DNA of 64,000 nucleotides from Candidatus Magasanikbacteria bacterium RIFCSPHIGHO2_01_FULL_41_23 (GCA_001782805.1 MFPT01000002.1:133401-197400); one strand, 5' to 3'. Counted from the first letter of the stretch, positions 4,788 through 63,518 are shown. Notes: generated from the sequence alone by a model not told the origin. A program made the numbers and translations.

Positions 4788-4991
4788 AATTTTGGATATA
4801 AAATGGAAAATTGCCCTCGGGTGAGGGCATATACAAATATGGAAAAAGTATAGAGGAAAGTGGGGGAATGGTCAATAAAAAAACCGATACCAATTATACA
4901 AGTATCGATTTAAAACAAATTAAAATGTGTTTGCCCGCCCGTGTTGTCGACGCATGGGCGGACAAACACGGGCGGTTGGATGGTGTGCGCC

Positions 4992-45918: not shown

Positions 45919-47673
45919 TTATTTTGGAGTGGTGGTAACAATCTCCATAGCTTGACGCGCAGTAAAAGTATAAATCTGAAAAAGTTCCTCATTATTTCGA
46001 TTAAGAACAGGGTGGTAGCTTATTCCCTGATTTTGAATCTTCTTAGCCAAAACATCAGGATGCAGTCCATCAAAACGAGAATCTGGGTTACGCAATGCCG
46101 CTGGCATGGTATGAATATAATAAAAATTCATGTCCGGATCAACTCCATACAAATTGGACAATTGCGCAGACAGATTGGTCATAACCATAATAGGCCAAGC
46201 CTCATAAAAAGTCCGACGCGCCAATGACCACAAAAGAAAACGTATTTCCAGTCGTGGATCGTACAAAAGTATGACTGACGCTTTTTTACCTTCACGCGGA
46301 TGAGCTTGAGCATAGGCATTCATTTTTTTATTTAAATCTGCGCTTTTGGTAGTGGGTTTGAAAACTGACACTTTGTCTTGGAGCAGATTTTCCAATAGTT
46401 TATCCAAGGCCTGAACGCCATTATTAGGTACAATAAGCGAAGGCGCATAGGCCAGTAAGCGCGGGCCAAACGGTTTAGCCTGTCCTCCCCACAGCACACT
46501 GTTTACTGTAAACAAAAGTTCATACAAACAAAAAATTAAAAAAATAATCCAAACAATCCGAGGTTTGAATATCGCCATTAACTCATCAATAAAAACCGCG
46601 CTGATCGCGCATAAAAATGGCACGACATAAAATAAAAACCTGATAGCTGAACCAAAAGACAAAGTCATAGCCAGCAAACATCCTGTTGAAAGTAATAAAA
46701 CTTTTTGTCCCAATGGAACATATTTATTTTTAATCCAGCACTTGGCAGTCAAAAAAATCATTGAAGCCAAACCAGCCAAAGAAATAGCAAAAAAAACCGG
46801 TGAAAAAATCGAACCAAAATTGGATAATCCGGCCAGGCGATGGAGAATCGATCCCCGTTCTTCTTTGCCAGACAAAAACAACCAATCCGGTTTTATATCC
46901 TGATGCAATAAACTGGCCCATTGCAAATCAAAATGATGTCGGCTTTGGTACATCTCGATGTTATAAATAAATACCGGAGAAATGATTAGTAAAAAACCAA
47001 GTATTCCTATCCAAAAAGTTTTTTGTCGATAGATATGTTTTTCATTGATTAAAAACAAAGCATACACCGGCACCATTGCGAGTGCCACATATTTAGCAAT
47101 CACACTGAGTCCCAAACTAATCCCCCAAGCCACGAAATAACGAGGCTGTTCGCGCGCGCGCAGAAAAAAATACAAAGTGAGTAAAATAAAAAATAAAGTA
47201 ATTGATTCCATCATCGCTGTGCGAGCATAGAACACGGCCAAAGAATTAAACGCAAACAAAATCATCGCAATCAAGGCACTGCGCGCAGTAAACAATTGCC
47301 TCATAATTAAACCAAGCAATCCGACTGACAAAATACCCAGCAAAGCTGATGGCAAACGCATGACAAACACACTCACTCCAAAGACAGACAGAAACAAATG
47401 CTGAAACAAAAACACCAACGGCGGATGATCATGAAACGACAATCTTACCCACCACGGCACAGCCGTAAACCAATCATACGGCGTTGTCTGCAAATCACTG
47501 GCCAAAGAATCAATCATACCAATACTGCGCACCATATAGGCCGGCTCATCACCGGCAATTTCTCCGGAAGATAAAAAAATAAGCCGTAAACAACTGGCCA
47601 GTAAAATAATACATAACAATTGATAGCGAAAACGTATTCTGAACATAAAATATAGTGTATCACACTTGACCAA
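45919..47673 (-). CDS. GT-C family glycosyltransferase (ArnT/PMT-like, GT39/GT83-type)
   Basis: Polytopic 584-aa protein with a GDEPAY-type first-loop motif and about 12 TM helices. Confidence 0.6.
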   Translation of the reverse strand: MVKCDTLYFMFRIRFRYQLLCIILLASCLRLIFLSSGEIAGDEPAYMVRSIGMIDSLASDLQTTPYDWFTAVPWWVRLSFHDHPPLVFLFQHLFLSVFGVSVFVMRLPSALLGILSVGLLGLIMRQLFTARSALIAMILFAFNSLAVFYARTAMMESITLFFILLTLYFFLRAREQPRYFVAWGISLGLSVIAKYVALAMVPVYALFLINEKHIYRQKTFWIGILGFLLIISPVFIYNIEMYQSRHHFDLQWASLLHQDIKPDWLFLSGKEERGSILHRLAGLSNFGSIFSPVFFAISLAGLASMIFLTAKCWIKNKYVPLGQKVLLLSTGCLLAMTLSFGSAIRFLFYVVPFLCAISAVFIDELMAIFKPRIVWIIFLIFCLYELLFTVNSVLWGGQAKPFGPRLLAYAPSLIVPNNGVQALDKLLENLLQDKVSVFKPTTKSADLNKKMNAYAQAHPREGKKASVILLYDPRLEIRFLLWSLARRTFYEAWPIMVMTNLSAQLSNLYGVDPDMNFYYIHTMPAALRNPDSRFDGLHPDVLAKKIQNQGISYHPVLNRNNEELFQIYTFTARQAMEIVTTTPK

Positions 47674-47684
47674 TCTAAAACAAA

Positions 47685-47710
47685 AACCACCCCGAGTGAT
47701 CGGGATGGTT
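47685..47710 (-). terminator. rho-independent terminator after the 374-aa surface-protein gene
   Basis: aaccaccccgagtgatcgggatggtt hairpin followed by a U-run on the minus strand. Confidence 0.45.
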
Positions 47711-47755
47711 TTGGTTAATTAAAGTTAATTAAAGTTAATTAAGTGGACAAAAACT

Positions 47756-48880
47756 CTATGAAGCAGTAAAGGTTATGACGCCATTACAACTACCTCCTAA
47801 AGCAGTCCCTGCAGTACTAGGAACTATATCTAAAATCCACCAAGTAGTTGAGGGTGCTTCAGTAGTAGTAACCGTTTGCTTACCATATCTTATAGCTAAA
47901 TTTCCAGAAGTTCTAAATGCTTCAGCACTGTTTGATGAAGAAACAACTTTTGTAGTAGCTTGAGTAGTATAACTAGTAAGCGTTGATGTTGTGTAGGCTA
48001 GACTTGATACACCGATAGTTCCAACTGTACAATTAAACGGATTGCTCTGTACTTGAATTGTAGTAGAGGCATTGTTACCACTATTAATTATACGTATCGA
48101 TTGCGCCGATCCTATACTTCCGACAACACCTGATGCCGCACCATAGGCAATTGAACCAAAATCCAAAGTGGAAGAAACATTGATGGATGTCAGTGTCGCA
48201 AGTTCAAAGTTAATTGCAGTAGATGTAGCGGAACGAGCACCATTACTATCAATGGCAATTGCTTCAGCCTTCCAATTTTGGGCTGAATAAGCACCGCCAG
48301 CCGAACCAGCACCACCCGAATCAGTGGCATCAGCAAAATGCTTGATAGGGAAAGTACATCTAAAACCTACTTGAACAGTAGAGCTTGGTGTACAACCATT
48401 ATCGATAAAAATACAACGACTAGTACTGGTAATCAAGGGATCGCCATCACCCGTGTTATCATTAGAATTAATGTAGCACCTCATATCATTTTTTTCTGTG
48501 GTACTGGAAGAACAACCTAGACCAGGTACAGTGTTGTGACGATAGACATATACTTCAAGCCGACCACTGGTACTGGCAACTTCAAAACAACCATTGTTGT
48601 CACTGACTTTGCCATATACATATAACTGTGTGTAAGTCTGTTCATTGAGAGTAAGAGGGGTGGTACTAGGAGAACTGAGCAAAGTTCCCGCTCCTGAAGT
48701 ACTGGTGTTAACCGTAATACTGTCAATCGTAGGCGTGGCGTTACTGACAGTTGCAGAAAAAGTGTTATCGTCGGCTTGAGAACGCAGTGAAACAAATACA
48801 AGGAGTATAAGCACACCGGCCACTCCCAGAAAGAGAGCAACAAGATAGTGGTTATACTTAGTTTGGGGATGTTCTTGCAT
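47756..48880 (-). CDS. Ser/Thr-rich cell-surface protein with an N-terminal TM anchor
   Basis: N-terminal TM helix; low-complexity S/T/G-rich body with paired Cys; its C-terminal 300 aa are paralogous to the C-terminus of the 1254-aa protein. Confidence 0.55.
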   Translation of the reverse strand: MQEHPQTKYNHYLVALFLGVAGVLILLVFVSLRSQADDNTFSATVSNATPTIDSITVNTSTSGAGTLLSSPSTTPLTLNEQTYTQLYVYGKVSDNNGCFEVASTSGRLEVYVYRHNTVPGLGCSSSTTEKNDMRCYINSNDNTGDGDPLITSTSRCIFIDNGCTPSSTVQVGFRCTFPIKHFADATDSGGAGSAGGAYSAQNWKAEAIAIDSNGARSATSTAINFELATLTSINVSSTLDFGSIAYGAASGVVGSIGSAQSIRIINSGNNASTTIQVQSNPFNCTVGTIGVSSLAYTTSTLTSYTTQATTKVVSSSNSAEAFRTSGNLAIRYGKQTVTTTEAPSTTWWILDIVPSTAGTALGGSCNGVITFTAS

Positions 48881-48911
48881 AATCGTACATAATATGATTT
48901 AAAATAATGGA

Positions 48912-49190
48912 TTATTTTTTGTCTTTTTTTAAAACCTCTACTGATACATTTGTTGCGTCATCAGTTGTACCCTTAACAAATGCCTTGATCTTTACGGTGT
49001 CATCTGGACTTGAATCACCAGGAGTTGCCGCAGGTGCCGAGGGTAAAGGGACAGCTTTTGTTCGTGTATACCAACTTCGTGGTTTACTATTTTTTTGTGA
49101 TGTTGGTTGCGCGAGGATAATTATCCCAGCCAAGATAGAAATCCCTACCCATCCAATACCGATGGGAATAAGATATTTACTCATATACAC
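48912..49190 (-). CDS. small membrane-anchored protein (92 aa)
   Basis: One TM helix plus a Pro/Ser-rich tail. Confidence 0.35.
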   Translation of the reverse strand: MYMSKYLIPIGIGWVGISILAGIIILAQPTSQKNSKPRSWYTRTKAVPLPSAPAATPGDSSPDDTVKIKAFVKGTTDDATNVSVEVLKKDKK

Positions 49191-49315
49191 CTCCTCTCAA
49201 AATAACGGTCTGCTTATAACTCATAGAATAAAATTAAACGTATCTTTATTAAATTAATTTAATTATACATTATTTTGCTAGATATATATATATCAAAATT
49301 TTAGCTGTGGATAAA

Positions 49316-50533
49316 CTAGCTTTTTTTGTAATGATGTTTAAAATACCAAACACCAACAGCCAATATAATGATAAATACAATAATGAAAATATAGGAAACA
49401 AATCCAACTGCGGAACTAACTATGATCGTCTCCAATTTATGGGCAGTTTTTTTTATGCCATATTCAAAATAAGCGTCAAAAGTATATTCTCCTTTACTAT
49501 CGGGTCGAAATGTCAGAGTATATTCAACATTTTGCCCTTTGCCCACCGTCTTTTTTTCCGCACGCATTAAATCAATTATTTTGCCATCTTTGGTAATTTC
49601 CACATACCAAATTGGATCTAATACCACTCCGCCCGTATTGGTAAACAAACCGGTTAATTTGACCAAATCACCTGATTCGAAGGTGTTTCCATTAATTTTA
49701 AAGCTGTCAAAACTACCGGCCTGCGCCAAAGTACCGGTAGGCCAGACTTTAATAATACGATCAGTCTTTAAGGTTGAGATAACTTTGTCATCCAGATAAA
49801 ATGAAAATGAAGCACTATATTCTCCAAGTGGAAGATTTTTTGTTAAACCAGCATTGATTCGACTAAGTTCTCCTGGCAATACATATTCAAGGGAACTGCC
49901 CGAAATGGTTTCGGAAATTATATTGGCGGGATCAGTTATATCAACGAAAACAGCATCGATACGTTCTGGTTTAACATCTACATTCCCGGTATTAAGTAAA
50001 GAAAATCCAAAAATAACCGGCTTATCAATTTCGGTATCATCGGCTGAAACATTACTAATAAACATTGTTTTTATTTGTTGGTCAGTGACGGTAAATACGA
50101 CATGAGCGATCACACCAGATGTGATTGATACAGAATTTCCACTACTATTAATAACTTTATTTGGATTGGGCTGACTCATAAATTCCAACTCTGCCGTATG
50201 TTTACCATTTTGCGCATTCATTGGTTTAATATGAATGTCAATATTGGCGCGATTTTGACCAGCCGGAATAACAATGGGACTCTTGGGAAGACTAATATAG
50301 GAAGCGGCCTCACCTCTTGCTTTTATAGAGAAAAAGACATCTTCTTCGCTTGCCGTGTTGGTTAGAATTAGTGTCCGCGAGATATCAACTCCATTTGCCA
50401 GATTTTCTGCCTCAAGAGTGCCTGGAGAAATTCCAATTGCCTGAGTCATACTCGGCGCAAAAATTCCGGTCAATAAAAAACCAAAAAAAATACTGCTTAT
50501 TCCTACTCGACTTAAGAAAAAACGATCGGGCAT
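49316..50533 (-). CDS. cell-surface protein, GISP-motif family (DUF916/DUF3324-like architecture), paralog 1
   Basis: Signal peptide, AIGISPGTLEAENL immediately after the predicted cleavage site, beta-rich body, C-terminal TM plus a basic tail (KHHYKKS). Confidence 0.55.
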   Translation of the reverse strand: MPDRFFLSRVGISSIFFGFLLTGIFAPSMTQAIGISPGTLEAENLANGVDISRTLILTNTASEEDVFFSIKARGEAASYISLPKSPIVIPAGQNRANIDIHIKPMNAQNGKHTAELEFMSQPNPNKVINSSGNSVSITSGVIAHVVFTVTDQQIKTMFISNVSADDTEIDKPVIFGFSLLNTGNVDVKPERIDAVFVDITDPANIISETISGSSLEYVLPGELSRINAGLTKNLPLGEYSASFSFYLDDKVISTLKTDRIIKVWPTGTLAQAGSFDSFKINGNTFESGDLVKLTGLFTNTGGVVLDPIWYVEITKDGKIIDLMRAEKKTVGKGQNVEYTLTFRPDSKGEYTFDAYFEYGIKKTAHKLETIIVSSAVGFVSYIFIIVFIIILAVGVWYFKHHYKKS

Positions 50534-50553
50534 AAAAAAATAATTAAGTACTT

Positions 50554-51447
50554 TTAATAAGTACTTTTAAATTTTTTCCGAAAAACAAAGCCAATGCCAA
50601 TACACAGAATTACGAAAATTACTCCTAAACCGATGATTTTCCCGGAAAAAGTAGATTGTGGTGTCGTAGAAAGTGGGGATACCGGTCGACCAATTGTTTT
50701 CATAATAGTTGCCGTACCCACGACCACTCCTTTTGATTGAATGTTAATTTTGAAACTATAATTACCCGGAGACAAAAATTTTGTGATTGGTACTGTAAAA
50801 AGCCGGTTAGTCATGGGTGCAAGTAAGCCAGAGACAATGGGAATAGTTTCATTAAAAACCATTGATCCATCCAGTATCCCTTCAAGAGTCAGATCGTCAA
50901 TGGTTACTGGCACGTTACCACTGTTTACTCCTACAAAAGATACGTCTAATTTTTCTGGAGATTCGTTCAAAGAATTAATACTAATATTTCTCACTCCAAA
51001 ATCAGAAATTTCCTTGTCAGTAACGGAAAAATTAATTTTTCCCGAAATATTTGAAAGAAATGAAAATTCATCGGTACTTTGTTTTCCTGTGGGACTTACA
51101 AGAATTTCCACTGTGTAGTTTTTAGGTTTTGCCTGACGTGGCTCCACAGAAAAATCCAAGGGTACTTTTTTAACTCCGGGAGAAAATTTCAAAATATTAC
51201 TTTTAAAATGGATGAATTCTTTGCCTTCGTTTTGTAATTCAATTGAATAATATTGAGTTTCATCCGTGTCTGACCGAGTAATAAATATGGTTCGCTCTAC
51301 AGTACTGCCATTTCTTACCCCATTAATCTCCGTGTATGATGGACTAATGCCTAATGCTTCCACACAAACTGTCCAGCCAAAACTAGCAACTACTGTAATA
51401 AAAATAAGCAAACTTTTGTTTGTCCGCGCAGCACACTGAATCATCAT
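50554..51447 (-). CDS. cell-surface protein, GISP-motif family, paralog 2
   Basis: Signal peptide, ALGISPSYTEINGV, C-terminal TM plus RKKFKSTY. Confidence 0.55.
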   Translation of the reverse strand: MMIQCAARTNKSLLIFITVVASFGWTVCVEALGISPSYTEINGVRNGSTVERTIFITRSDTDETQYYSIELQNEGKEFIHFKSNILKFSPGVKKVPLDFSVEPRQAKPKNYTVEILVSPTGKQSTDEFSFLSNISGKINFSVTDKEISDFGVRNISINSLNESPEKLDVSFVGVNSGNVPVTIDDLTLEGILDGSMVFNETIPIVSGLLAPMTNRLFTVPITKFLSPGNYSFKINIQSKGVVVGTATIMKTIGRPVSPLSTTPQSTFSGKIIGLGVIFVILCIGIGFVFRKKFKSTY

Positions 51448-51471
51448 ATATTTTTTTTAAATAAGAGTCAC

Positions 51472-52524
51472 TTGTATAAGTACAGCCAGTATACTATACT
51501 TGGTCTGATTTTTATATATTATTTATTTTTTAATGTGGATAACATTAGTATGACCAAAATAACCCGACTCCGAAATGTGGCAATAATCATTTTTGTTTTT
51601 TTATTAAGTGCATTATTGTATCTCCACTTTTACTATTTTGCGCTTCCAACCATTCCTCTCTCTGATCAAAAAGTAAATCCTAATCTTGGTCTCATAGCCG
51701 TACGCTCGCTTAATGCCGAAAAACCCAATCTAAGCATCTATCGCTTACACGATGCCAAATCAGAAATATTTGCCGGAAATTGGCAAATGCAATACATGAC
51801 AAACGAACAAATTGCAGTGTATGGCAGTACAGCAGACCATCCCGAACAACAAAAATTTATTCTTCTGGGAACAGCGAGGGGCAGTATCAAAGATATTTCA
51901 AAACTTCCCGGACAAATAACCGCAGTTGCGGCCAATAAAGAAAACAGCTATCTTCTGTTGATGGGTTTTAAAAATGATCCCAAAAATCTAAAAACAACCA
52001 CTACGCCAAAGACATACGTTTGTGTTACGCCCAAAAATATTCTAGCATACGATAATTGTTTGTCGGTTACGGACACTATTATACCGACCAAAATTCATGA
52101 CACTTCTACTCCTTACCAAGCATACTGGAATGATGCCAAAGATACTGAATTGATAATTACCGAAGTGGCGGGAAAACAACGTTCCTGGACATATGACGCG
52201 GTTACGAAAAAGCTGGATATGATTGATAGCAAAAATCCCGCTAATATTCCGGAACCAACTTTTGTCAGCGCGGGAATGAATATGCTCTATAGTGTACAAC
52301 GCTGGAGTTCGCTGGCCATGATAACTGAACTGAAAACCAATAAAAAATTCTTTTTCCGGATTCCTTCAACTTCAACAATAATACCTTTAGCTGAGGGTTA
52401 CGCGTTGGTTGCAAATCAAGAGAAAACCTATATCCTAAACCTTGCCACACGAACCACGAGTGAATTTGTTCCTTTGTCAACTTCAACCCCAAGCCAAATC
52501 ATTACTTATTATTCTTACTATTAG
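51472..52524 (+). CDS. hypothetical membrane-anchored protein
   Basis: Two N-terminal hydrophobic helices, then a 300-aa extracytoplasmic domain with no recognisable motif. Confidence 0.4.
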   Translation: MYKYSQYTILGLIFIYYLFFNVDNISMTKITRLRNVAIIIFVFLLSALLYLHFYYFALPTIPLSDQKVNPNLGLIAVRSLNAEKPNLSIYRLHDAKSEIFAGNWQMQYMTNEQIAVYGSTADHPEQQKFILLGTARGSIKDISKLPGQITAVAANKENSYLLLMGFKNDPKNLKTTTTPKTYVCVTPKNILAYDNCLSVTDTIIPTKIHDTSTPYQAYWNDAKDTELIITEVAGKQRSWTYDAVTKKLDMIDSKNPANIPEPTFVSAGMNMLYSVQRWSSLAMITELKTNKKFFFRIPSTSTIIPLAEGYALVANQEKTYILNLATRTTSEFVPLSTSTPSQIITYYSYY

Positions 52525-53071
52525 TCAGAATTTTTCCCACAATGTTGGAACGACTGATTGAACCATATACGCGCGAATCTGTGCTGTGCGCTCGATTATC
52601 GCCAACGACAAAATAATTCCCGGGATTAACAATATATTCTTCCGGCGCTCTTTGAAATTTATGTGCCAGTGTATACACATCTTGTTTCAAATATGGTTCA
52701 TTCAATTCAAATGTTACATCGGTTTTACTTTTAACATAAATTTTTCCCCGTTTGACAATCACCACTTCTCCGGGTAAACCAATAATTCGTTTCACCATCA
52801 ATTTCTGATTTTGCGGATCAATGACTTGTACCACATCATAGCGCTCGGGCAGGGAAAACAAATACACCAACTTATTCACCAAAAAAAAATCCTCGTCAAT
52901 AAAAGCCGGCTCCATAGAAGGTCCATTTATTCGCCCCGGACTGATGAAAAAAAACCGGACAACAGCAAACGCATAAAAAAATATCATTGCCAAAAAAAGC
53001 ACAAAACCAATATATCGTTCAAAGAAATGTATTTTGGTAAGCCAGTCTTTCATAGACGATTCAGTGATCAT
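52502..53071 (-). CDS. lepB: signal peptidase I
   Basis: S26 motifs GPSMEPAF (catalytic Ser), VKRIIGLPGE (catalytic Lys) and GDNRAHSTDSR. Confidence 0.85.
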   Translation of the reverse strand: MITESSMKDWLTKIHFFERYIGFVLFLAMIFFYAFAVVRFFFISPGRINGPSMEPAFIDEDFFLVNKLVYLFSLPERYDVVQVIDPQNQKLMVKRIIGLPGEVVIVKRGKIYVKSKTDVTFELNEPYLKQDVYTLAHKFQRAPEEYIVNPGNYFVVGDNRAHSTDSRVYGSISRSNIVGKILTNSKNNK

Positions 53072-53105
53072 ATAGTATACTGAACTTATCTATTTATTTT
53101 TACTT

Positions 53106-53462
53106 ATGACAACTAATAATTTTTTGCTCGGTATTATCGCCATTGGCAAAGATGTTGGTCTATTTTTTTTAAGTGTGGCGGAAAATAATCAATTGATAGG
53201 ATTTTTTATTGGTTTTGTTATTGCCGTGCTTATTACTGGTTTTATTCTGACCAAAAATCCGCGACATATTCCTCTTATCCTGAGATATTCCACCACAGAA
53301 AGTTTTGCCCGCATTGCCAATCAGGGAAAGCACAGCAAAGTCTATTATACTGAATTTTCTCATTTCTTGAAAGTATATACTCAGGTTCGAATTGTTTTTT
53401 ATGTTTCTTTTATTGTGCTGTGCATTATGATTGCCACCACAGTTCTGGTATATAGGCCATAA
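53106..53462 (+). CDS. small membrane protein (3 TM, hypothetical)
   Basis: Hydrophobic ORF of 118 aa; weak support. Confidence 0.3.
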   Translation: MTTNNFLLGIIAIGKDVGLFFLSVAENNQLIGFFIGFVIAVLITGFILTKNPRHIPLILRYSTTESFARIANQGKHSKVYYTEFSHFLKVYTQVRIVFYVSFIVLCIMIATTVLVYRP

Positions 53463-54297
53463 ATTGATAAAAAGTCTTTGAGAATAATGCCAACAACCAT
53501 TCAAAAAACATTCGTATAAAAGATTTGTTGGTAATCTTAGCCACAACGCCCGAACTATCGGGCGATGGCAAACTAGGCACTAAAATATAGGCGGCCGGAC
53601 TTTCCAAACGCAATTTTCGAGAAATCGGATCAAGCGAACGAGATTTTAATTCCTCACTGTCCAAAGTATCAATATAATATCCGCCATCTGTTTCATAATA
53701 TGTTTGGAATCCTCCGGCCAGACTTGTCCAATTACCGGCTTGGCTGTAGACGATAATATAAAAATAATAAATTTCTCCAGGCTCAATTTCATCCAGAGAA
53801 ATTTTGTGATTATTTTGCAATACCGTATCCTTGATTTGGCGCGATTCGTCCAAACGTGTTCGACCATATTCAACGAGCGCGGACGTGGGCATATCGGTGG
53901 CAAATATCATGTAAACCATTCGAGGATTATGCGCATCATAAATAATCTTTACGGGTAAAAGAGAAACAGCCAGTCTGGCCGCTTTTTTTTTCACTGTGGT
54001 TGTGGCCGTTGCTGTTGAAGTGACTTTAAAAGGCTCATCCAAATCCGGATCTAAAACCGCCGGCTCAAAAACAAATTCAGGAGCTTTAAATTCAGGAAAA
54101 ATAATCTGGGGACCATGCGGCGCCCATCCTCCGGATGACACTGGAGAAGTTGGGCTTGGTGAATCACTGGGACTGTCGGCTGCCGGAATGATTGTGACGG
54201 TTACTTGTGTTGAATCGGCCAAAACTGCCCATGGATAAAAAACAGTAATAAAAAACAAAGAAAAAATAATGAGCCTTAAAATTTTATGATAAAACAT
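53425..54297 (-). CDS. secreted Fn3-like domain protein
   Basis: Signal peptide; Pro/Ser-rich linker; YMIFATDMPTSALVEYG resembles the purple-acid-phosphatase N-terminal Fn3-like domain. Confidence 0.45.
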   Translation of the reverse strand: MFYHKILRLIIFSLFFITVFYPWAVLADSTQVTVTIIPAADSPSDSPSPTSPVSSGGWAPHGPQIIFPEFKAPEFVFEPAVLDPDLDEPFKVTSTATATTTVKKKAARLAVSLLPVKIIYDAHNPRMVYMIFATDMPTSALVEYGRTRLDESRQIKDTVLQNNHKISLDEIEPGEIYYFYIIVYSQAGNWTSLAGGFQTYYETDGGYYIDTLDSEELKSRSLDPISRKLRLESPAAYILVPSLPSPDSSGVVAKITNKSFIRMFFEWLLALFSKTFYQFMAYIPELWWQS

Positions 54298-54304
54298 AAA
54301 ATAA

Positions 54305-55240
54305 TCATTTGAATTTTCGTCGTTTTAACCAAATAAATATACCAACAAATATCACCATTATTGCGGCCAGAATTATGACATTGCTTTTAATAATTTCTGC
54401 GATTAAGCGTAGATAATGTCCGCGAATACTGCCAGGTTTTACGGAAAAATTTATGCGCCGCTCACCGCCTTCAGTCAAACGATAGCCTTCAAAAACTTTG
54501 ATATAGGCTGTGTATTCACCAACATTTAAATTATGCGGCACAGTAAGTATAATTTCTTTAGTGGTAAACGGTGAAACTGTTTCAACTTTTTTGATTTCCA
54601 CTCGTTCTACGAAATTTTTTTCATTCTGATCATAAACATCCACTTGGACTTTGGTTGGCCCTGTCCGCGTATTGCCGGTATTTTGAACAGTTAAAATAAG
54701 CTCGGCAGTTCCCGGAATTTTCCAACGCATCCACGGCACCGACGCATAAGCAGAAAACATCTTAACAGCCGGTAAAATAAAATCAGTAACCGCAGTTTTA
54801 ATTACTACTAATTCCACCGGAACCGAAGTTCCCAAGACTGTTTGCGTACTGTAACGACTGTCTTTTTCCGTCACTATTTCCGTAATTGTTATACTTCCGT
54901 GATACGTGCCAAGACTGGCATTCACCGGCGCTTGTATCCGGAATGGAATCAAAAGCTGATGCTCATTTTTTTCCCAAACAATCTCTCTGCCTTTATCCGA
55001 AATAATCCATGAGCCAGAGGAAAAATCAATGCCAAGATGAACAATTGATGTTTTTTGCGCATCGCTCCGACTAAGCGTTAGTACGGAGACAGCGGATGAT
55101 CCCAGCAATAAACGCTCATTAATTATTTTAGCCGGAGAAATACCTAAACCAGCGCTCACCTGATGCGGATTAAAAATAATCATTAAGGCAATAAAGAGTA
55201 CACTATAAAATTTTAAGACACGCATATATTTTATGGCCAA
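54305..55240 (-). CDS. cell-surface protein, GISP-motif family, paralog 3
   Basis: Signal peptide, GLGISPAKIINERL, C-terminal TM plus KRRKFK. Confidence 0.55.
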   Translation of the reverse strand: MAIKYMRVLKFYSVLFIALMIIFNPHQVSAGLGISPAKIINERLLLGSSAVSVLTLSRSDAQKTSIVHLGIDFSSGSWIISDKGREIVWEKNEHQLLIPFRIQAPVNASLGTYHGSITITEIVTEKDSRYSTQTVLGTSVPVELVVIKTAVTDFILPAVKMFSAYASVPWMRWKIPGTAELILTVQNTGNTRTGPTKVQVDVYDQNEKNFVERVEIKKVETVSPFTTKEIILTVPHNLNVGEYTAYIKVFEGYRLTEGGERRINFSVKPGSIRGHYLRLIAEIIKSNVIILAAIMVIFVGIFIWLKRRKFK

Positions 55241-58200
55241 GGTAATTGATTAATACGACCCAAAAAAGAAATGACTCCACTGTAAACACCCGCCTGAACA
55301 CCAAGCGGCGCTTGCCAACCCCAAAAGATATTTTTAGTCTGCAAAGTACTTGAACTGGTTGTTTTGGGAATATTAATATCAATCGTGGTACTGACCGCTG
55401 TCAAAGACGTACTGGAAGCATAAAACGTATTGGAACTCGTGGCATAACGCTGAGAAGAAACAGGAACAATCGATCCGGTAGTTTGGCTCGTCATATCAGC
55501 TCCATAAATATCAATATCAACGGACGTATTGCCGGTCGAAGTAACTGTGGTGGTAACAGTTAACGGCATATTTTCGCCCGGACTAAATTGGCCATAATTT
55601 TTGGATGATGTCGTAACATCAATTCCCACGAGTGATACCACTTCAGGCGAGCCCGCAGTACTAAAAGCCGATCCTGTTTGCGGAGCCGCATCAGTCGCTG
55701 TAATATATGCCCGCCAATATTCGCTGGACCATGGAGTAGTATCACTCCCATCAGTGGGATCAGCGTGAAACTGCAGAGCAAAAGTACAGTTTGCCGTACA
55801 ACTATTGCCACTGCAGCCGGTCAATTGGCATGAAGTAGAATAACAATTATTATCATCAGTCGTACAATTGTTGGTATTGGTAACACCGGAACGATAGATA
55901 ACTGCGGTCGCGGAAATAATATCACTATAGCCATTAATGTCAGTAATAGTCGCACTCGCCGTAACTGTAGTTGTCGTATTTTCAGTTAAGGTAATGTCTG
56001 ATCCGTTATTTAAAGTAACACTCGTTACCACTGGCGCCGGATTGGTATAGGTTACACTGCCATAGGCCTCATATAAGGTTGAACTCACGGCTGTGCCTTC
56101 AACTGTTTGCACATTTTTAAAACGTATGCGCAGTCCATCAAGTTGCGTTTGAGTCAAAGTAAGGCCACTAAACGTAGCGCTGGACCAGCCTGCGACTGTG
56201 CGATTGGAAACTTGCTGGGAACTGCCATACTGACTTGATTCGGTATCATTCCACAAAGATAATTCCCATTGCATATTGGTGTTGCCATTATCATAATAAA
56301 CCCAAACCGCGACATCGGTACTGGTTGGCGCTCCGCTTAATGTAGTCATCGCAAACGTATCGGCTTGAGTATTGGCACAAATTATAAAATCACCCGTATC
56401 CGGAGTCGTCGGTTGGCGAACAGTCTCATCAACAGTGGCATAATGGCTTCCGGCTGGTGTGGGAGTACAACTAAGCGCAGTTCCATCGCCATTGGGATCA
56501 ATAATCCCAATGGAATCAGAGGCAATTTGCCACTGACTTATTTCTTGAAACGTTGAGCTGGCAGTTTTTTCCCCATTGGCAAAAAAACTGGCCGGTCCAA
56601 GCATAAATAAATACGGACTAATATCGGGCGCGTCAAAATCGTACGTAAGTTCATAGACATCGCCGGCTTGCCAAACAATTGGCCAGTTAAGGACTTGAAC
56701 ATCCCCTTCTTCCCGAATAATCGGTGGAATTATTTTTTGTTTTTTAATTAAATCAATTGATGATGTCGCACTGGAAGAAATTAATTTTAATTCCACAGTG
56801 GACAAATCAAAGCTGGCCGGAATTCGCTCCTCCAACGTGCCTATTACGGGATTATGAACTTTAAAATTGAGACGAACCGGATAACCGGCCGGAGGAAAAA
56901 TACGCGTTGGACCGATTCGTTCTATTTCCACTGGCATTTCCGCACGAACTTCAAATATATTTTTAATTTCATAGCCATTATCCAGATTTTTTAACGTCAT
57001 CGTATATGTGCCAATTTCTTGAGGCGTAAAATAACTGTAATAATCAGGCACATCAACCACATTGTTTGGTCCGCACAGTCCTGATCTCTGAATAGCGGGC
57101 ATTGCCTCGCCACCATTGGGCAAAGCAACGCGTAATAATAATTGAGCGTCACAAATTGTATGTCCATCGTCACGCAGAGCCGCCATTTGCATATACACCG
57201 GTTTACCCGGCATTATAATTGAACTATTCGTATTGATTGCCAGTACTCCCCAGGTAAAATCCTCTTCATGGGCGTACACGCCATCCGGAGAATACACATC
57301 AACTTTGAGCGTATATTTTCCCGGCTTTAGACTGTGGAAATTATTTTCCATGGCAACCACGAACGCATTGGCTGAATTAAATTTCACTTCCGGTTCCAAA
57401 GCCGGCTCACGTTTTCCCTCATCATCAAGCACGGCTGTTTCTACCGTTATGGCACTGGCAATTGTTCCCATAGTTGGAGCAGGTTTATCGGAAAAAAGAT
57501 TAACTATTGCATCAACCACAGTACTCACAATAGTTGGCGGAGGTGGTTCTGGTTTGGTATATTCAAAATTAAATTGCGGATTTTCTTCAGAAACAAAATC
57601 GGTTTTTTCCGAAACCAATTTAACCGGCGATGTTTCATCGGACAGACCAATCGTATCCGGATCAAGTTCCAGCCAAACCGCGTCCACAAATAAATTTTTT
57701 AACGGATCGAGTGTTTCACCTTGACGAATCAACCGAACGCCAAGCCGTTGAATTTCTGAAACATCAGTAATAGCTGGCAGCGAAAAAAAGAAATATCCCT
57801 GATTAATGGCATTGGAATTTTCCAAATGCAAATCAATTAAGCCAACTTCTTCCCAATTCCCTCCCAACGTATACTGGACAATTAATTTTTGACTCACGCC
57901 GGCATGATTGGCAAACGATAAACCCAATTTGGCACCAACAATTCTACGAATTTTTTTTTGCAGACTAAGATCAGATAAGGCAAATTGACCAAATTCCAAA
58001 AAAGAAATCTCAGGTGTTTTTTCTGACGATTCTAATGATGGTAAAATAACGGGAAGAACAATCGAATTCTGATTTGATTCACTTTTTGGAGTATTGACCG
58101 CTTCATTTGATTTAATTGGTTCAAGCAAAGGTTCTGTAGGCAAAACAATTGGTGGAACTACGGGAACTTCTGGTTTGATTGGATCTGGCGATTCAATTGG

Positions 58201-58995
58201 AGCGGGAATTGCGACTGGTTCAGGATCGGGAATCGGCTCTGGTTTTGGTGTTGGTGTTAGTATCGGTATCGCTATTGGTTCTGGCGCTGTGGCTGGTGCT
58301 GGTTCTGACTTTGGTTCAGGAGTTGGGACGATTATTGGTTCAACCGGAGGATTGGTTGGTGAAGCATTATTTTCCGTTGTTTCTGTTTGCGCCAAGACCG
58401 GCAAGGACCAAGGAAAAAAATAACGAAAAAGAGAAAAGCCAACTTGTTCGGATTGAGATGGAATAGGAGATGCTTCAATTGGAATTGGTGCTGGTGGAGT
58501 TGGCTGAGGTATATCTTCTGGAGGAGATGGAGGGGGAAGTGGAGTCTGATCTAGTGGAACAGATAGTGGAGCTACTGGCTGACTTGATTCAATCGGTGCC
58601 AATTGTTCGACCGGATTTGGAGTCGGAGTTATTGTTGGCTCAGTTGGATTTGCTTGAAAAGGAATTTCTGTTGGAGGAATCGGATCATTCGGAATTGACG
58701 GAGAAGGAATCGGCGATGTTTCAATAGTTGGCCTTTCTGTAACTGGAGTCCGCGCCAAAGCGGAATTATCCAAACTAAATTGAGTTAAATCCGCTGTCTG
58801 TGATAAATCTCGTCTAAGCGCTGACATAGGATTTTGCCAATTACTGGAAAATGAAGCTGGCTCGGCAATAATCGATTGTTTGGCATTAGCTAAGAGAGAA
58901 AATGATGTTTGGTTAAATAAAAAAAATGCCAATAAAAAAATAATCGTAAAAACAAATTCTCTTGTTCTTTGGCGTATCATAAAATACTTGAACAT
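55231..58995 (-). CDS. giant secreted Pro/Thr-rich surface protein (1254 aa)
   Basis: Signal peptide; a 250-aa proline-rich repeat region (PEPIPDPEPVAIPAPIESPDPIKPEVP); a T/S-rich Cys-containing C-terminal domain paralogous to 47756-48880. Confidence 0.6.
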   Translation of the reverse strand: MFKYFMIRQRTREFVFTIIFLLAFFLFNQTSFSLLANAKQSIIAEPASFSSNWQNPMSALRRDLSQTADLTQFSLDNSALARTPVTERPTIETSPIPSPSIPNDPIPPTEIPFQANPTEPTITPTPNPVEQLAPIESSQPVAPLSVPLDQTPLPPPSPPEDIPQPTPPAPIPIEASPIPSQSEQVGFSLFRYFFPWSLPVLAQTETTENNASPTNPPVEPIIVPTPEPKSEPAPATAPEPIAIPILTPTPKPEPIPDPEPVAIPAPIESPDPIKPEVPVVPPIVLPTEPLLEPIKSNEAVNTPKSESNQNSIVLPVILPSLESSEKTPEISFLEFGQFALSDLSLQKKIRRIVGAKLGLSFANHAGVSQKLIVQYTLGGNWEEVGLIDLHLENSNAINQGYFFFSLPAITDVSEIQRLGVRLIRQGETLDPLKNLFVDAVWLELDPDTIGLSDETSPVKLVSEKTDFVSEENPQFNFEYTKPEPPPPTIVSTVVDAIVNLFSDKPAPTMGTIASAITVETAVLDDEGKREPALEPEVKFNSANAFVVAMENNFHSLKPGKYTLKVDVYSPDGVYAHEEDFTWGVLAINTNSSIIMPGKPVYMQMAALRDDGHTICDAQLLLRVALPNGGEAMPAIQRSGLCGPNNVVDVPDYYSYFTPQEIGTYTMTLKNLDNGYEIKNIFEVRAEMPVEIERIGPTRIFPPAGYPVRLNFKVHNPVIGTLEERIPASFDLSTVELKLISSSATSSIDLIKKQKIIPPIIREEGDVQVLNWPIVWQAGDVYELTYDFDAPDISPYLFMLGPASFFANGEKTASSTFQEISQWQIASDSIGIIDPNGDGTALSCTPTPAGSHYATVDETVRQPTTPDTGDFIICANTQADTFAMTTLSGAPTSTDVAVWVYYDNGNTNMQWELSLWNDTESSQYGSSQQVSNRTVAGWSSATFSGLTLTQTQLDGLRIRFKNVQTVEGTAVSSTLYEAYGSVTYTNPAPVVTSVTLNNGSDITLTENTTTTVTASATITDINGYSDIISATAVIYRSGVTNTNNCTTDDNNCYSTSCQLTGCSGNSCTANCTFALQFHADPTDGSDTTPWSSEYWRAYITATDAAPQTGSAFSTAGSPEVVSLVGIDVTTSSKNYGQFSPGENMPLTVTTTVTSTGNTSVDIDIYGADMTSQTTGSIVPVSSQRYATSSNTFYASSTSLTAVSTTIDINIPKTTSSSTLQTKNIFWGWQAPLGVQAGVYSGVISFLGRINQLPWP

Positions 58996-59071
58996 TGTAG
59001 TCTAAGTATACAAGAAAAAATATATTTGGTAAATAAAATAGCGAATTAGTTAATCTGCAATATAACGGTAT

Positions 59072-60572: not shown

Positions 60573-60933
60573 ACAGGGTCAAAAAACAAAAACCCCACCG
60601 TGTCCCCTTTCGAGAAGCAGAGTGGGTGGTTTTAGTAAAGTCAGTATATCAAACATATCAGCGTTGTCAAATGGTGTATATTTGCGGTCGATAACATAAA
60701 ATATGGTATTTGTTTTTTCATCTGTCATTACACGGTGGCAGGCGCGGTCGGAATCGGACCGACGACGGAGGTTTTGGAGACCCCAGTGATACCATTTCAC
60801 CACGCGCCCATATTTTTTACCCTCCTCCAAAATATTTTGTGTAAACCAACGAAACTATAATACCCAAAAAATAAAAAAAAAACAAGCCTCAGTATCTTCC
60901 AAGGCCTGATAGAAAATCGCGAATAATTTATGG

Positions 60934-63233: not shown

Positions 63234-63307
63234 GCGCGCCTAGCTCAGTTGGTTAGAGCATCTCGTTTACACCGAGAGGGTCGAGGGTTCGAATCCCCCG
63301 GCGCGCA
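63234..63307 (+). tRNA. tRNA-Val (anticodon TAC)
   Basis: Acceptor GCGCGCC/GGCGCGC, D arm GCTCagttggttaGAGC, anticodon stem TCTCG/CGAGA with loop TTTACAC, T loop TTCGAAT; no encoded CCA. Confidence 0.8.
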
Positions 63308-63312
63308 CCCAG

Positions 63313-63385
63313 GCCGCCTTAGCTCAGCTGGTAGAGCAACAGTTTTGTAAACTGTGGGTCGTCGGTTCAAATCCGACAGGCGGCT
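63313..63385 (+). tRNA. tRNA-Thr (anticodon TGT)
   Basis: Acceptor GCCGCCT/AGGCGGC, anticodon stem ACAGT/ACTGT with loop TTTGTAA, T arm GTCGGttcaaatCCGAC; 73 nt. Confidence 0.85.
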
Positions 63386-63437
63386 CCCCTCGGCAAGCTC
63401 GCTTGTGATGAGCCTGTCGAATCGGGGTAAACAATAC

Positions 63438-63510
63438 GCCGTTGTAGCTCAGTTGGTAGAGCGCGTCCATGGTAAGGACGAGGTCACCAGTTCGATCCTG
63501 GTCAATGGCT
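63438..63510 (+). tRNA. tRNA-Thr (anticodon GGT)
   Basis: Acceptor GCCGTTG/CAATGGC, anticodon stem CGTCC/GGACG with loop ATGGTAA, T arm ACCAGttcgatcCTGGT; 73 nt. Confidence 0.85.
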
Positions 63511-63518
63511 CACATAAA

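Follow-up and report, generated by a model that had tools for sequence, protein, structure and literature searches.

We describe a conserved set of ten genes in an ultra-small bacterium of the Candidate Phyla Radiation (CPR) that is predicted to encode secreted and membrane-tethered Ig-like proteins and to include a signal peptidase of its own. The genes occupy positions 47756-58995 of the stretch of DNA that we analyzed (64 kb in full length, referred to below as the window), and they form one minus-strand operon-like block with a strong terminator at its end. More than 15 independent metagenomic contigs show this gene set and order again. This is a coherent surface gene cluster, as an earlier note on this DNA had claimed, rather than a group of secreted proteins that happen to be encoded together. 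The best explanation that we can offer, to which we give about an even chance, is that the operon specifies a Sec-exported, sortase-independent, multi-protein surface complex of the Candidatus Magasanikbacteria cell. By analogy, this complex would resemble the WxL clusters in its layout and the SipW/TasA system in its peptidase logic, and it would belong to neither family.

Organization of the locus

ORF calling reproduced exactly all nine open reading frames of the earlier note, which had overlooked a tenth conserved gene, gX (53106-53462, plus strand, 118 aa). Two genes, g5 and gX, are on the plus strand; g1, g2, g3, the signal peptidase gene (SPase), g6, g7, g8 and g9 are on the minus strand. 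A strong intrinsic terminator with a 13-bp stem (47683-47712, minus strand, also read on the plus strand) lies 44 nt past the g9 stop. Hexamers that are promoter-like by consensus match only are found just upstream of g1 (59005-59033, minus strand). Just downstream of the operon there is a PMT/GT39-like gene. A glycosylation link through this gene was ruled out, since the strong terminator lies between and the adjacency is not conserved in related loci.

Every product of the cluster has an N-terminal hydrophobic segment. Classical small-x-small cleavage sites (marked with an arrow) can be read from the sequences of g1 (ANA↓K), g2 (VSA↓G), g3 (VLA↓D), g6 (VEA↓L), g7 (TQA↓I) and g9 (SQA↓D). In Pfam and NCBIfam scans of the cluster proteins the sole family matched was that of the peptidase itself, hence there is no sortase in the cluster; the same scans revealed no prepilin peptidase gene and found no family for g3, g5, g8, g9 or gX. 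LPXTG is present at the C-terminus of no cluster protein, and a class III signal (G↓F-x-x-x-E) is present in none of them, g9 included. The earlier note had likewise seen neither a sortase nor a signal of the LPXTG or type IV pilin kind, and with these motifs missing we discarded the type IV pilin and LPXTG readings of the cluster. That note had allowed for the neighbours of the peptidase being secreted enzymes; Pfam and NCBIfam identify no catalytic domain in any of them. Our search of the literature on CPR bacteria with signal peptidase, pili or S-layer as subjects found no description of the locus.

The signal peptidase and gX

The signal peptidase I gene (52502-53071, minus strand) encodes a bacterial P-type S26A enzyme of 189 aa. 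It matches Peptidase_S26 (PF10502) with E 1e-36 and 126.9 bits (cutoff 22.9), and the equivalog model TIGR02227 (sigpep_I_bact) with 131.4 bits (cutoff 47). An N-terminal TM anchor is followed by Ser52 in GPSMEP, Lys94 in VKRIIGLPGE and box E, GDNRAHSTDSR. In an alignment Ser52, Lys94 and GDNRxxSxDSR are kept in all nine of nine orthologues. The Ser/Lys dyad and box E being both present and conserved, the enzyme is catalytically intact, as had been noticed before, and we predict that it is an active signal peptidase I.

The start codon of gX is 34 nt from that of the peptidase gene, in divergent orientation. Its product is predicted to be a membrane protein; the sequence has two or more hydrophobic segments, as well as a loop, ILTKNPRHIPLILRYS, that is conserved in the orthologue alignment; neither Pfam nor NCBIfam has a matching family. 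Wherever the neighbouring DNA is present in a related locus, gX and the peptidase gene are adjacent (17 of 17 loci: L002, L003, L005, L006, L008, L009, L011, L012, L013, L020, L021, L022, L023, L025, L027, L028 and L029), and GISP or g9 genes are always alongside. In L023 and L027 the peptidase gene is on the same strand as two GISP genes and directly upstream of them; in L028, which is cut off, it precedes one. The constancy of the gX-SPase pair bears out the peptidase as a genuine member of the cluster. There is no second signal peptidase gene within the 64-kb window, and the enzyme could also be the general one of the cell. The structural module does not strictly need a peptidase gene in the cluster, since L007 and the Anaerolineae-labelled loci are without one.

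The GISP proteins

Three genes of the minus strand, g2 (54305-55240, 311 aa), g6 (50554-51447, 297 aa) and g7 (49316-50533, 405 aa), encode paralogues, as the earlier note had recognized: E is 3e-15 for g6 against g7 and 5e-4 for g2 against g7. The family name is taken from the motif at the predicted mature N-terminus (VSA↓GLGISP in g2, VEA↓LGISP in g6, TQA↓IGISP in g7), in which G and P are invariant in 63 family members. Behind the signal peptide there are two Ig-like domains in g2 and g6 and three beta-sandwich domains in g7, and all three proteins end with a TM helix that is followed by a basic tail. An exact-sequence look-up of g2 gave no match, probably since its start codon is placed differently by gene callers.

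The AlphaFold2 model of g7 (pLDDT 86) has three beta-sandwiches and the TM helix. In this model GISP domain 1 has a PapD/ASH-type fold whose first strand is split at the invariant G-x-S-P. An enterococcal WxLIP is among the closest solved structures to the GISP model, and an in-situ S-layer protein, 7ptp_A, is among the Foldseek matches of g7 (E 3e-8). Matches to chaperones score lower than those to generic Ig domains, and the GISP proteins contain no recognizable chaperone motifs. g2 has a sub-threshold match to WxLIP_HBD (PF11797) and a faint NCBIfam match to a putative S-layer model (E 0.009).

A word-indexed homologue search with g6 returned only g6 itself, and it took an exhaustive profile search to reveal the family, which comprises 2248 clusters at 50% identity. 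None of the 63 sampled members reaches a Pfam threshold. Profile searches of PDB sequences with the GISP and g9 families gave nothing meaningful.

A module shared by g1 and g9

The giant predicted secreted protein g1 (55231-58995, minus strand) has 1254 aa, with Met6 taken as the start by gene callers. Behind its signal peptide (ANA↓KQ) the mature N-terminus is conserved, and a low-complexity stalk, several beta-sandwich domains and, at the C-terminus, a g9-type module come next. Its orthologue in L002 is 37% identical in full length, and there are others in L003 and L006. The earlier note had described g1 as Pro-rich, and its stalk is indeed 26% proline (residues 61-330; 58006-58815, minus strand). 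The proline is not a conserved property, however: the L002 orthologue has a spacer rich in Ser, Thr, Glu and Lys, so that only the disorder of the stalk is conserved. Matches of g1 to WxLIP_HBD (PF11797) are sub-threshold (E 0.016, and 6.5e-5 for the L006 orthologue), as are those to MG2.

The predicted secreted, S/T-rich protein g9 (47756-48880, minus strand, 374 aa, 8 Cys) aligns in BLASTP with residues 968-1246 of g1 (55258-56094, minus strand; E 1e-6). Two paralogous S/T-rich proteins had been reported earlier; the paralogy exists, but only g9 is a stand-alone protein and its partner is the C-terminal 290 aa of g1. Neither g3 nor g8 is related to g9. With g1 as a query, phmmer recovers stand-alone g9-type proteins in L007, L008, L009 and L013. 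A small and a large secreted protein with a common C-terminal module are found here and also in L002, L006, L014, L015 and L018, and many loci carry two g9-type paralogues.

Alignments suggest that mature g9 consists of a putative cadherin-like Ig domain (NxxPxI ... DNNGC) and a putative ASH/PapD-like beta-sandwich ending with (Y/F)WxLx(I/V)P ... GxCxGT(L/I)TFxA. Members of the g9 family give weak matches to Pfam families that we judged to be of PapD/ASH type. An AlphaFold2 model of g9 from 8 sequences is all-beta and of low confidence (pLDDT 51); the Foldseek matches of this low-confidence model are weak and to generic adhesin and pilin beta-sandwiches, the best being RbmA (E 6e-4), with CfaB and PapA at 0.01-0.04. 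At E <= 1, neither g9 nor g1 nor any of 22 family members matches the WxL domain (PF13731). Close to the C-terminus a single W-x-L-x-x-P motif is conserved, and the second motif is absent. Models of TasA/camelysin (Peptidase_M73) and of the SipW-type signal likewise have no match in g9 and 22 family members at E <= 1, and TasA is neither among the PDB profile matches nor among the top 50 Foldseek matches of the low-confidence g9 model.

Two features of the g9 N-terminus deserve attention. The signal segment, HYLVALxLGxxGxLIxLVFVSLRSQA↓D (residues 1-36; 48773-48880, minus strand), has a mean pairwise identity of 64% among 10 orthologues, against 35% for the mature part. This conservation suggests that g9 and the signal peptidase form a cognate substrate-peptidase pair. 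Mature g9 then opens with a conserved alternating strand, which aligns with the last strand of the g1 domain that precedes the g9-type module. In g9, therefore, this strand lacks a domain on which to pack.

The remaining genes and the related loci

In the product of g3 (53425-54297, minus strand, 290 aa) there is a signal peptide (VLA↓D) and a Ser/Pro-rich linker, and the protein probably contains an FN3-like domain. Its orthologues are only weakly similar to each other, and the one in L003 has weak matches to fn3 and Pur_ac_phosph_N (E 0.002). The gene g5 (51472-52524, plus strand, ORF of 350 aa) is convergent with the peptidase gene, and the two 3' ends overlap. Translation probably begins at Met27 (51550), and the resulting product of 324 aa is predicted to be an N-terminally anchored extracytoplasmic protein. 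Orthologues of g5 are found in 11 loci, among them the SPase-less L007. A small protein with a predicted N-terminal anchor, g8 (48912-49190, minus strand, 92 aa), is encoded between g7 and g9; it has weak orthologues in L002, L008 and L009, and in L005 and L007 similar-sized genes take its position.

Certain associations hold across the related loci. The genes g1 and g2 stay neighbours in L002 and L003, where the pair is inverted and downstream of g9, and g2 and g3 are fused in L006. The genes g7, g8 (where present) and g9 are adjacent in all loci that have them. The flanks differ, with Fpg/NYN in the window, DnaK/DnaJ in L002 and L003 and ScpAB in L006, and locus content varies between related genomes. 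A minimal unit of a small g9-type protein, a GISP protein and a larger protein with a g9-type C-terminus occurs without a peptidase gene in L014, L015 (Anaerolineae-labelled) and L018; two of the contigs with such a unit bear the Anaerolineae label. L007 combines two small g9-type proteins with two GISP proteins and g5.

Comparison with known systems

SipA and LepA are catalytically dead homologues of signal peptidase that work with sortases and LPXTG pilins. The earlier note had brought up these assembly factors of Gram-positive pili as an analogy, and our locus and the streptococcal FCT/pilus islands that encode them do share an SPase-I-family gene inside a surface-structure locus of a monoderm. 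The analogy did not hold up. The peptidase and its orthologues have kept Ser52, Lys94 and box E, and there is neither a sortase system nor an LPXTG protein, so that we discarded this reading. Better precedents, as analogies, would seem to be tapA-sipW-tasA for the peptidase logic (PMC9674648) and the WxL/WxLIP cluster for the layout (PMC10599100).

By definition, a WxL cluster has two or more neighbouring proteins that end in a WxL domain (PF13731, with dual Trp-x-Leu motifs), and a WxLIP combines DUF916 (PF06030) and DUF3324 (PF11797) with a TM helix at its C-terminus; WxLIP has been predicted to bind WxL by strand insertion (PMC10599100, PMC9772566). In these clusters (also called Csc) of Lactobacillales and Bacillales (PMC10599100, PMC9772566, PMC1534035), as in ours, a small secreted protein accompanies a large one ending in the same module. 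A further protein carries two Ig-like domains between its signal peptide and a TM helix with a basic tail at the C-terminus, a very small anchored protein is often encoded as well, and all components are surface proteins of monoderm cells. To these likenesses can be added the sub-threshold PF11797 matches of g1 and g2. There are also differences. g9 and g1 are without a detectable WxL domain, their module being a putative cadherin-like domain with an ASH/PapD-like beta-sandwich. The WxLIP models are not passed at Pfam thresholds. The LPXTG protein is missing here, while the signal peptidase, gX and g5 are extra. The hosts are CPR bacteria, plus the Anaerolineae-labelled contigs, and not Firmicutes.

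SipW is a peptidase of the ER/archaeal type, and for TasA-type proteins NCBIfam models a conserved SipW-dependent signal peptide. In the tapA-sipW-tasA operon of Bacillus subtilis an active peptidase is encoded beside its own substrates (PMC9674648, PMC10151520). Our locus is similar in that a peptidase, here predicted to be active, shares an operon with secreted beta-sandwich proteins that are its expected substrates, in the conservation of a substrate signal segment (that of g9), and in an N-terminal strand that may be freed on cleavage. It differs in the peptidase, which is of the bacterial Ser/Lys type (TIGR02227 is the best model and Lys the general base), in g9, which has no TasA/camelysin or SipW-type signal match, and in having tail-anchored Ig proteins, which are absent from TasA operons.

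Two further systems can be mentioned. Chaperone-usher pili share with our locus the PapD/ASH-type fold, seen here in GISP domain 1; on the other hand, there is no usher and no outer membrane here, the GISP proteins are membrane-tethered, and their likeness to PapD is no stronger than that to generic Ig domains. In the S-layers of Sulfolobales a SlaA canopy stands on a SlaB stalk. As in those archaea, the gene for a giant secreted protein lies here beside one for a tail-anchored beta-sandwich protein of the stalk kind. Here, however, there is more than one GISP paralogue, extra genes are present, and the likeness is one of layout.

A possible mechanism and its alternatives

If the operon specifies a surface complex, its assembly might proceed as follows. 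All structural proteins would be exported by Sec, and their signals, ending with small-x-small sites, would be removed by the in-cluster peptidase together with its small membrane partner gX. Given the exceptional conservation of its signal segment, g9 would be the likely cognate substrate. The three GISP proteins would be held in the membrane by the C-terminal helix, with two or three PapD/ASH-type Ig-like domains directed outward. Once cleaved, g9 and g1 would be anchorless. We infer that they are kept at the surface, through non-covalent and probably beta-strand-mediated binding of their shared two-domain C-terminal module to neighbouring GISP proteins: g1 with g2 (and g3), g9 with g6 or g7 (and g8). 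g1 would then display its long stalk and additional beta-sandwich domains as the adhesive or interactive part, which may serve adhesion or contact with a host.

Other explanations are conceivable. The cluster might produce a surface fibre primed by the peptidase, with g9 as the major subunit. Cleavage at SQA↓D would free the strand SATVSN for donor-strand complementation of the next subunit, g1 would be a tip or base adhesin with the same module, and the GISP proteins would be membrane-tethered PapD-like chaperones or anchors. We find this suggestion doubtful. It agrees with the first strand of g9, conserved and without its own domain to pack against, and a small subunit with a large protein of the same module also follows the logic of a major pilin and a tip adhesin. 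The two g9-type paralogues of many loci could be major and minor subunits, and TasA fibres offer a known case of a peptidase encoded next to the proteins that it processes (PMC9674648, PMC10151520). Yet g9 matches TasA in neither sequence nor fold, its pilin matches are weak and derive from a low-confidence model, the peptidase is not SipW-like, and the chaperone matches of the GISP proteins are below the generic Ig ones. An S-layer or envelope lattice, in which g1 (perhaps with g9) would form a canopy on tail-anchored GISP stalks as SlaA does on SlaB, is in our opinion unlikely. Such a lattice would explain reports of surface layers on ultra-small bacteria from groundwater, it suits the conserved adjacency of a giant secreted and a tail-anchored protein in g1-g2, and the very large size of the GISP family also speaks for it. 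The S-layer matches of g7 (7ptp_A) and g2, which could be cited in its favour, amount to generic Ig-domain similarity, however, and SLH or other S-layer anchoring domains have no Pfam match in the cluster, the faint NCBIfam match of g2 being the only one of its kind. Moreover, three GISP paralogues with a variable number of g9-type genes are atypical of a single lattice protein, and locus content differs between related genomes.

It may also be that the peptidase is simply the only LepB of the cell, a housekeeping enzyme whose gene lies by chance amid genes for abundant secreted proteins that do not rely on it in particular and need not form one structure. A short, ordinary bacterial-type enzyme that passes the equivalog model would be expected in such a case, CPR genomes are small, the window holds no second signal peptidase, and the structural module exists without an adjacent one in L007, L014, L015 and L018. 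We nevertheless consider this very improbable. Although the flanks are rearranged, the peptidase gene has kept its position in all of the related loci (17 of 17), the family-less gX is always beside it, and in L023 and L027 it directly precedes GISP genes on the same strand. In addition, the signal segment of g9 is abnormally conserved, and the neighbours are related to each other as paralogues and conserved pairs.

Implications

CPR bacteria (Patescibacteria) are thought to live attached to other microbes, and to our knowledge little is known of their surface molecules for attachment beyond type IV pili. The locus adds a conserved, lineage-wide set of surface proteins that, the peptidase apart, no Pfam or NCBIfam model describes. 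It also offers an architecture, in which tail-anchored Ig proteins would hold one small and one giant secreted protein. If the link between the peptidase, gX and the substrate is specific, this would be a rare bacterial example in which a signal peptidase I of the P-type is paired with both a cognate substrate signal and an accessory subunit, and the proteins would be candidate CPR adhesins or S-layer components.

A bolder suggestion, which we make tentatively and think rather unlikely, is an undescribed system of N-terminal sorting and assembly in monoderm ultra-small bacteria. The peptidase and its dedicated partner gX would recognize the unusually conserved signal-anchor of g9, cleavage would free a donor strand, and g9 and g1 would assemble on the PapD-like GISP proteins into a fibre or surface layer for contact of the CPR cell with its host. 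If correct, this would give monoderms an equivalent of chaperone-usher or SipW/TasA assembly that is made of unrelated parts.

Organization of the gene block

ORF calling finds nine ORFs at window positions 47756-58995, exactly where the earlier note had placed them. Eight of these are on the minus strand, namely g1, encoding a giant protein (1254 aa), g2 (311 aa), g3 (290 aa), the signal peptidase I gene (SPase, 189 aa), g6 (297 aa), g7 (405 aa), g8 (92 aa) and g9 (374 aa). The remaining one, g5, is the sole plus-strand ORF among the nine (350 aa as an ORF, 324 aa by gene callers). The count of nine genes is nevertheless too low. A tenth gene, gX (53106-53462, plus strand), was overlooked. 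Gene callers likewise report gX on the source contig; its product is a membrane protein of 118 aa. The start codons of gX and SPase are 34 nt apart and the two genes diverge. There is a promoter-like site directly upstream of g1, and a strong terminator with a 13-bp stem (47683-47712), 44 nt past the g9 stop, closes the block. Genes in the neighbourhood of the cluster are housekeeping ones: UvrA, UvrB, MurJ, EF4/LepA, RecJ, DnaK, Fpg and GreA.

Two convergent pairs overlap at their 3' ends, g5 with SPase by 23 nt (52502-52524) and gX with g3 by 38 nt (53425-53462). If a minus-strand transcript reads through from g1 to g9, it would be antisense to both gX and g5. The opposite orientations of these two genes are kept in most related loci, but not in L009, where g5, SPase and gX are co-directional.

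Several other features of the surroundings can be mentioned. Immediately downstream of the S/T-rich g9 is a gene for a PMT/GT39-like (dolichyl-phosphate-mannose or ArnT-type) glycosyltransferase (45919-47673, minus strand); the strong terminator separates it from g9, and their adjacency is not kept in related loci. A tRNA-Trp(CCA) gene is at 60736-60809 on the minus strand, and a cluster of tRNA-Val(TAC), tRNA-Thr(TGT) and tRNA-Thr(GGT) genes is at 63234-63511 on the plus strand. At 23506-25278 (plus strand), in a GC-rich patch (0.50 vs about 0.40), is the gene of a 590-aa protein that contains an adenylate/guanylate cyclase domain. At the related locus L006, a 589-aa protein encoded directly upstream of the g1 orthologue (3075-4844) matches this domain weakly (E 1.7e-4, slightly short of the Pfam cut-off), and L005 has a response-regulator gene within the cluster. 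A regulatory connection might be read from these observations.

Conservation across related loci

Related loci were collected through g9 homologues, GISP homologues, a scan of species-representative genomes and a gX-seeded metagenome scan, and their genes were mapped by phmmer and profile HMMs. (GISP denotes a family of paralogous tail-anchored proteins, named for a motif that follows the signal peptide.) The core order gX, SPase, g5, (g6), g7, (g8), g9 is found in L002, L003, L005, L008, L009, L011, L012, L013, L021 and L025. Wherever neighbouring DNA is present, gX adjoins SPase (17 of 17 related loci), and GISP or g9 genes are always alongside. The flanks vary from locus to locus, with Fpg/NYN in the window, DnaK/DnaJ in L002 and L003, and ScpAB in L006. 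In L023, L027 and L028, SPase is directly upstream of GISP genes on the same strand. The g1-g2 pair is kept together; in L002 and L003 it is inverted and follows g9. In L006 (8638-10398) g2 and g3 are apparently one ORF of 586 aa, about their summed length, which argues that the two proteins act together.

A smaller arrangement, without SPase, occurs in L014 (8441-13084), L015 (3417-8111) and L018 (3346-6925). This trio comprises a GISP protein, a small g9-type protein and a larger one whose C-terminus is of the g9 type. L007, which has neither SPase nor gX, encodes two small g9-type proteins, two GISPs and g5. From this minimal unit we read the GISP and g9-module proteins as the ancestral functional unit; the gX-SPase pair is a tightly associated addition in Magasanikbacteria-type loci. 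L014 and L015 are contigs of metagenome-assembled genomes (MAGs) labelled Anaerolineae, and L018 is another metagenomic contig. Therefore, unless the first two are mis-binned, the trio family extends beyond the CPR, to which Candidatus Magasanikbacteria belongs. Such taxon labels (L012 Gammaproteobacteria; L014 and L015 Anaerolineae) are the depositors' and may reflect binning. L012 (CAYHRN010000006.1) is a typical Magasanikbacteria-type cluster deposited as 'uncultured Gammaproteobacteria', probably through mislabelling or wrong binning. In L002 (15872-17272) and L007 (8364-10409), but not in the window, the cluster has Wzy_C (O-antigen ligase-like) membrane proteins at its flank.

The signal peptidase and its candidate substrates

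SPase matches Peptidase_S26 with E 1e-36 and scores 131 bits against TIGR02227, the bacterial equivalog model (cutoff 47). It has Ser52 (GPSMEP), Lys94 (VKRIIGLPGE) and box E (GDNRAHSTDSR), each of them kept in an alignment of nine syntenic orthologues, in agreement with the earlier description of a catalytically intact enzyme. It is therefore predicted to be an active, ordinary-looking P-type SPase I. These residues rule out a degenerate SipA/LepA-like protein, and the TIGR02227 match together with Lys94 rules out a SipW-type enzyme. Hence the earlier idea of a SipA/LepA-type peptidase within a surface-structure locus survives in part: the locus is real and SPase, predicted from its sequence to be active, is integral to it, but the analogy itself fails. 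Within the 64-kb window there is no second S26 gene.

All cluster products carry an N-terminal hydrophobic segment. Small-x-small cleavage sites can be read from the sequences of g1 (ANA↓K), g2 (VSA↓G), g3 (VLA↓D), g6 (VEA↓L), g7 (TQA↓I) and g9 (SQA↓D). Across ten orthologues the g9 segment, HYLVALxLGxxGxLIxLVFVSLRSQA↓D, has a mean identity of 64%, against 35% for the mature part, and the signal peptides of g7 orthologues lack comparable conservation. The hydrophobic run of g9 is about 20 residues, the length of a transmembrane helix. Mature g9 opens with a conserved alternating strand, SATVSN, that aligns with the last strand of the g1 domain preceding the g9-type module; g9 itself lacks a domain of which this strand could be part. 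The conserved signal and the lone strand are consistent with a cognate peptidase-substrate pair and with a strand that cleavage would set free.

GISP proteins and the g9 module

The three GISP-family proteins of the earlier note, g2, g6 and g7, are indeed distant paralogues (g6 vs g7, E 3e-15; g2 vs g7, E 5e-4). They share a plan of a signal peptide, x-G-I-S-P, two to three beta domains with an N-x-G-N motif, a C-terminal transmembrane helix and a basic tail. An exhaustive profile search puts the family at 2248 clusters (50% identity) at E <= 1e-3 and 1093 at E <= 1e-10. None of 63 sampled members reached a Pfam family threshold; they gave weak matches alone, to CARDB, DUF7507, BatD, DUF11 and ASH-type Ig. 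The AlphaFold2 model of g7 (pLDDT 86) shows three beta-sandwiches and then a long helix at the C-terminus, with the first strand interrupted at the invariant G-x-S-P. The top Foldseek matches are tandem Ig proteins of the ASH/HYDIN type; among the others are the E. faecium WxLIP structures 9i25_C and 9i1y, solved recently (E 3e-8 to 9e-8), hits that are not separable from generic Ig folds. In L017 (777-5362) a distant GISP gene adjoins one for a 1118-aa Beta_helix/NosD-domain protein, which suggests that GISP proteins can pair with other kinds of large surface protein.

The earlier note spoke of two paralogous S/T-rich proteins. There is a paralogue of g9, but it is residues 968-1246 of g1 (BLASTP E 1e-6), not a second stand-alone protein; g1 as query also recovers stand-alone g9-type proteins at other loci. 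In alignment, the shared module consists of a cadherin-like Ig domain in which several Cys are conserved (N-x-x-P-x-I ... D-N-N-G-C) and a beta-sandwich (L-x-(Y/F)-G-x-L-x-L-G ... I-T-N-T-G-N), and ends in (Y/F)-W-x-L-x-(I/V)-P ... G-x-C-x-G-T-(L/I)-T-F-x-A. Weak Pfam matches among 22 members of the g9 family include HYDIN_VesB_CFA65-like_Ig, ASH, Cep192_D4, TMEM131_like_N and WxLIP_PGBD, one member each, all five judged to be PapD/ASH-type Ig families; none of the 22 matches the WxL domain. The structure model of g9 is poor (pLDDT 51) and its fold matches are uninformative. In addition, g1 has a conserved mature N-terminus, a low-complexity stalk and weak WxLIP_HBD-like and MG2-like domain matches. 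Its stalk is 26% Pro in the window, as the description of a Pro-rich giant implied, but this richness is not conserved, being absent from the stalk of the L002 orthologue. The g3 orthologue in L003 has weak FN3-type matches; g5, g8 and gX match no Pfam or NCBIfam family.

What might the locus encode?

With about as much doubt as confidence, we propose that the locus encodes a sortase-independent surface complex. GISP proteins would remain tethered through their C-terminal helix, while cleaved g9 and g1, having no anchor, would be held by binding to neighbouring GISP partners, and g1 would display its long stalk and extra domains. [quoted passage not shown] However, the WxL domain is absent here and WxLIP models matched below threshold only. 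In tapA-sipW-tasA (PMC9674648), as is proposed here, a peptidase is encoded beside its substrates, but our SPase differs in type from SipW, and g9 does not resemble TasA. We therefore regard the locus as similar to both systems in how it works without belonging to either.

Other readings can be suggested. If g9 is the subunit of a strand-complemented fibre, the GISPs would be tethered PapD-like chaperones; we consider this rather unlikely. An S-layer built like SlaA/SlaB seems to us more doubtful still. SPase could also be a housekeeping enzyme whose position is coincidental. Its linkage to the cluster at all 17 loci with neighbouring DNA, the invariable presence of gX as its partner, the loci where SPase and GISP genes share a strand, and the conservation of the g9 signal segment speak against coincidence and make it very improbable.

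The locus is built of protein families without any Pfam or NCBIfam model, and the surface biology of the host lineage is poorly known.
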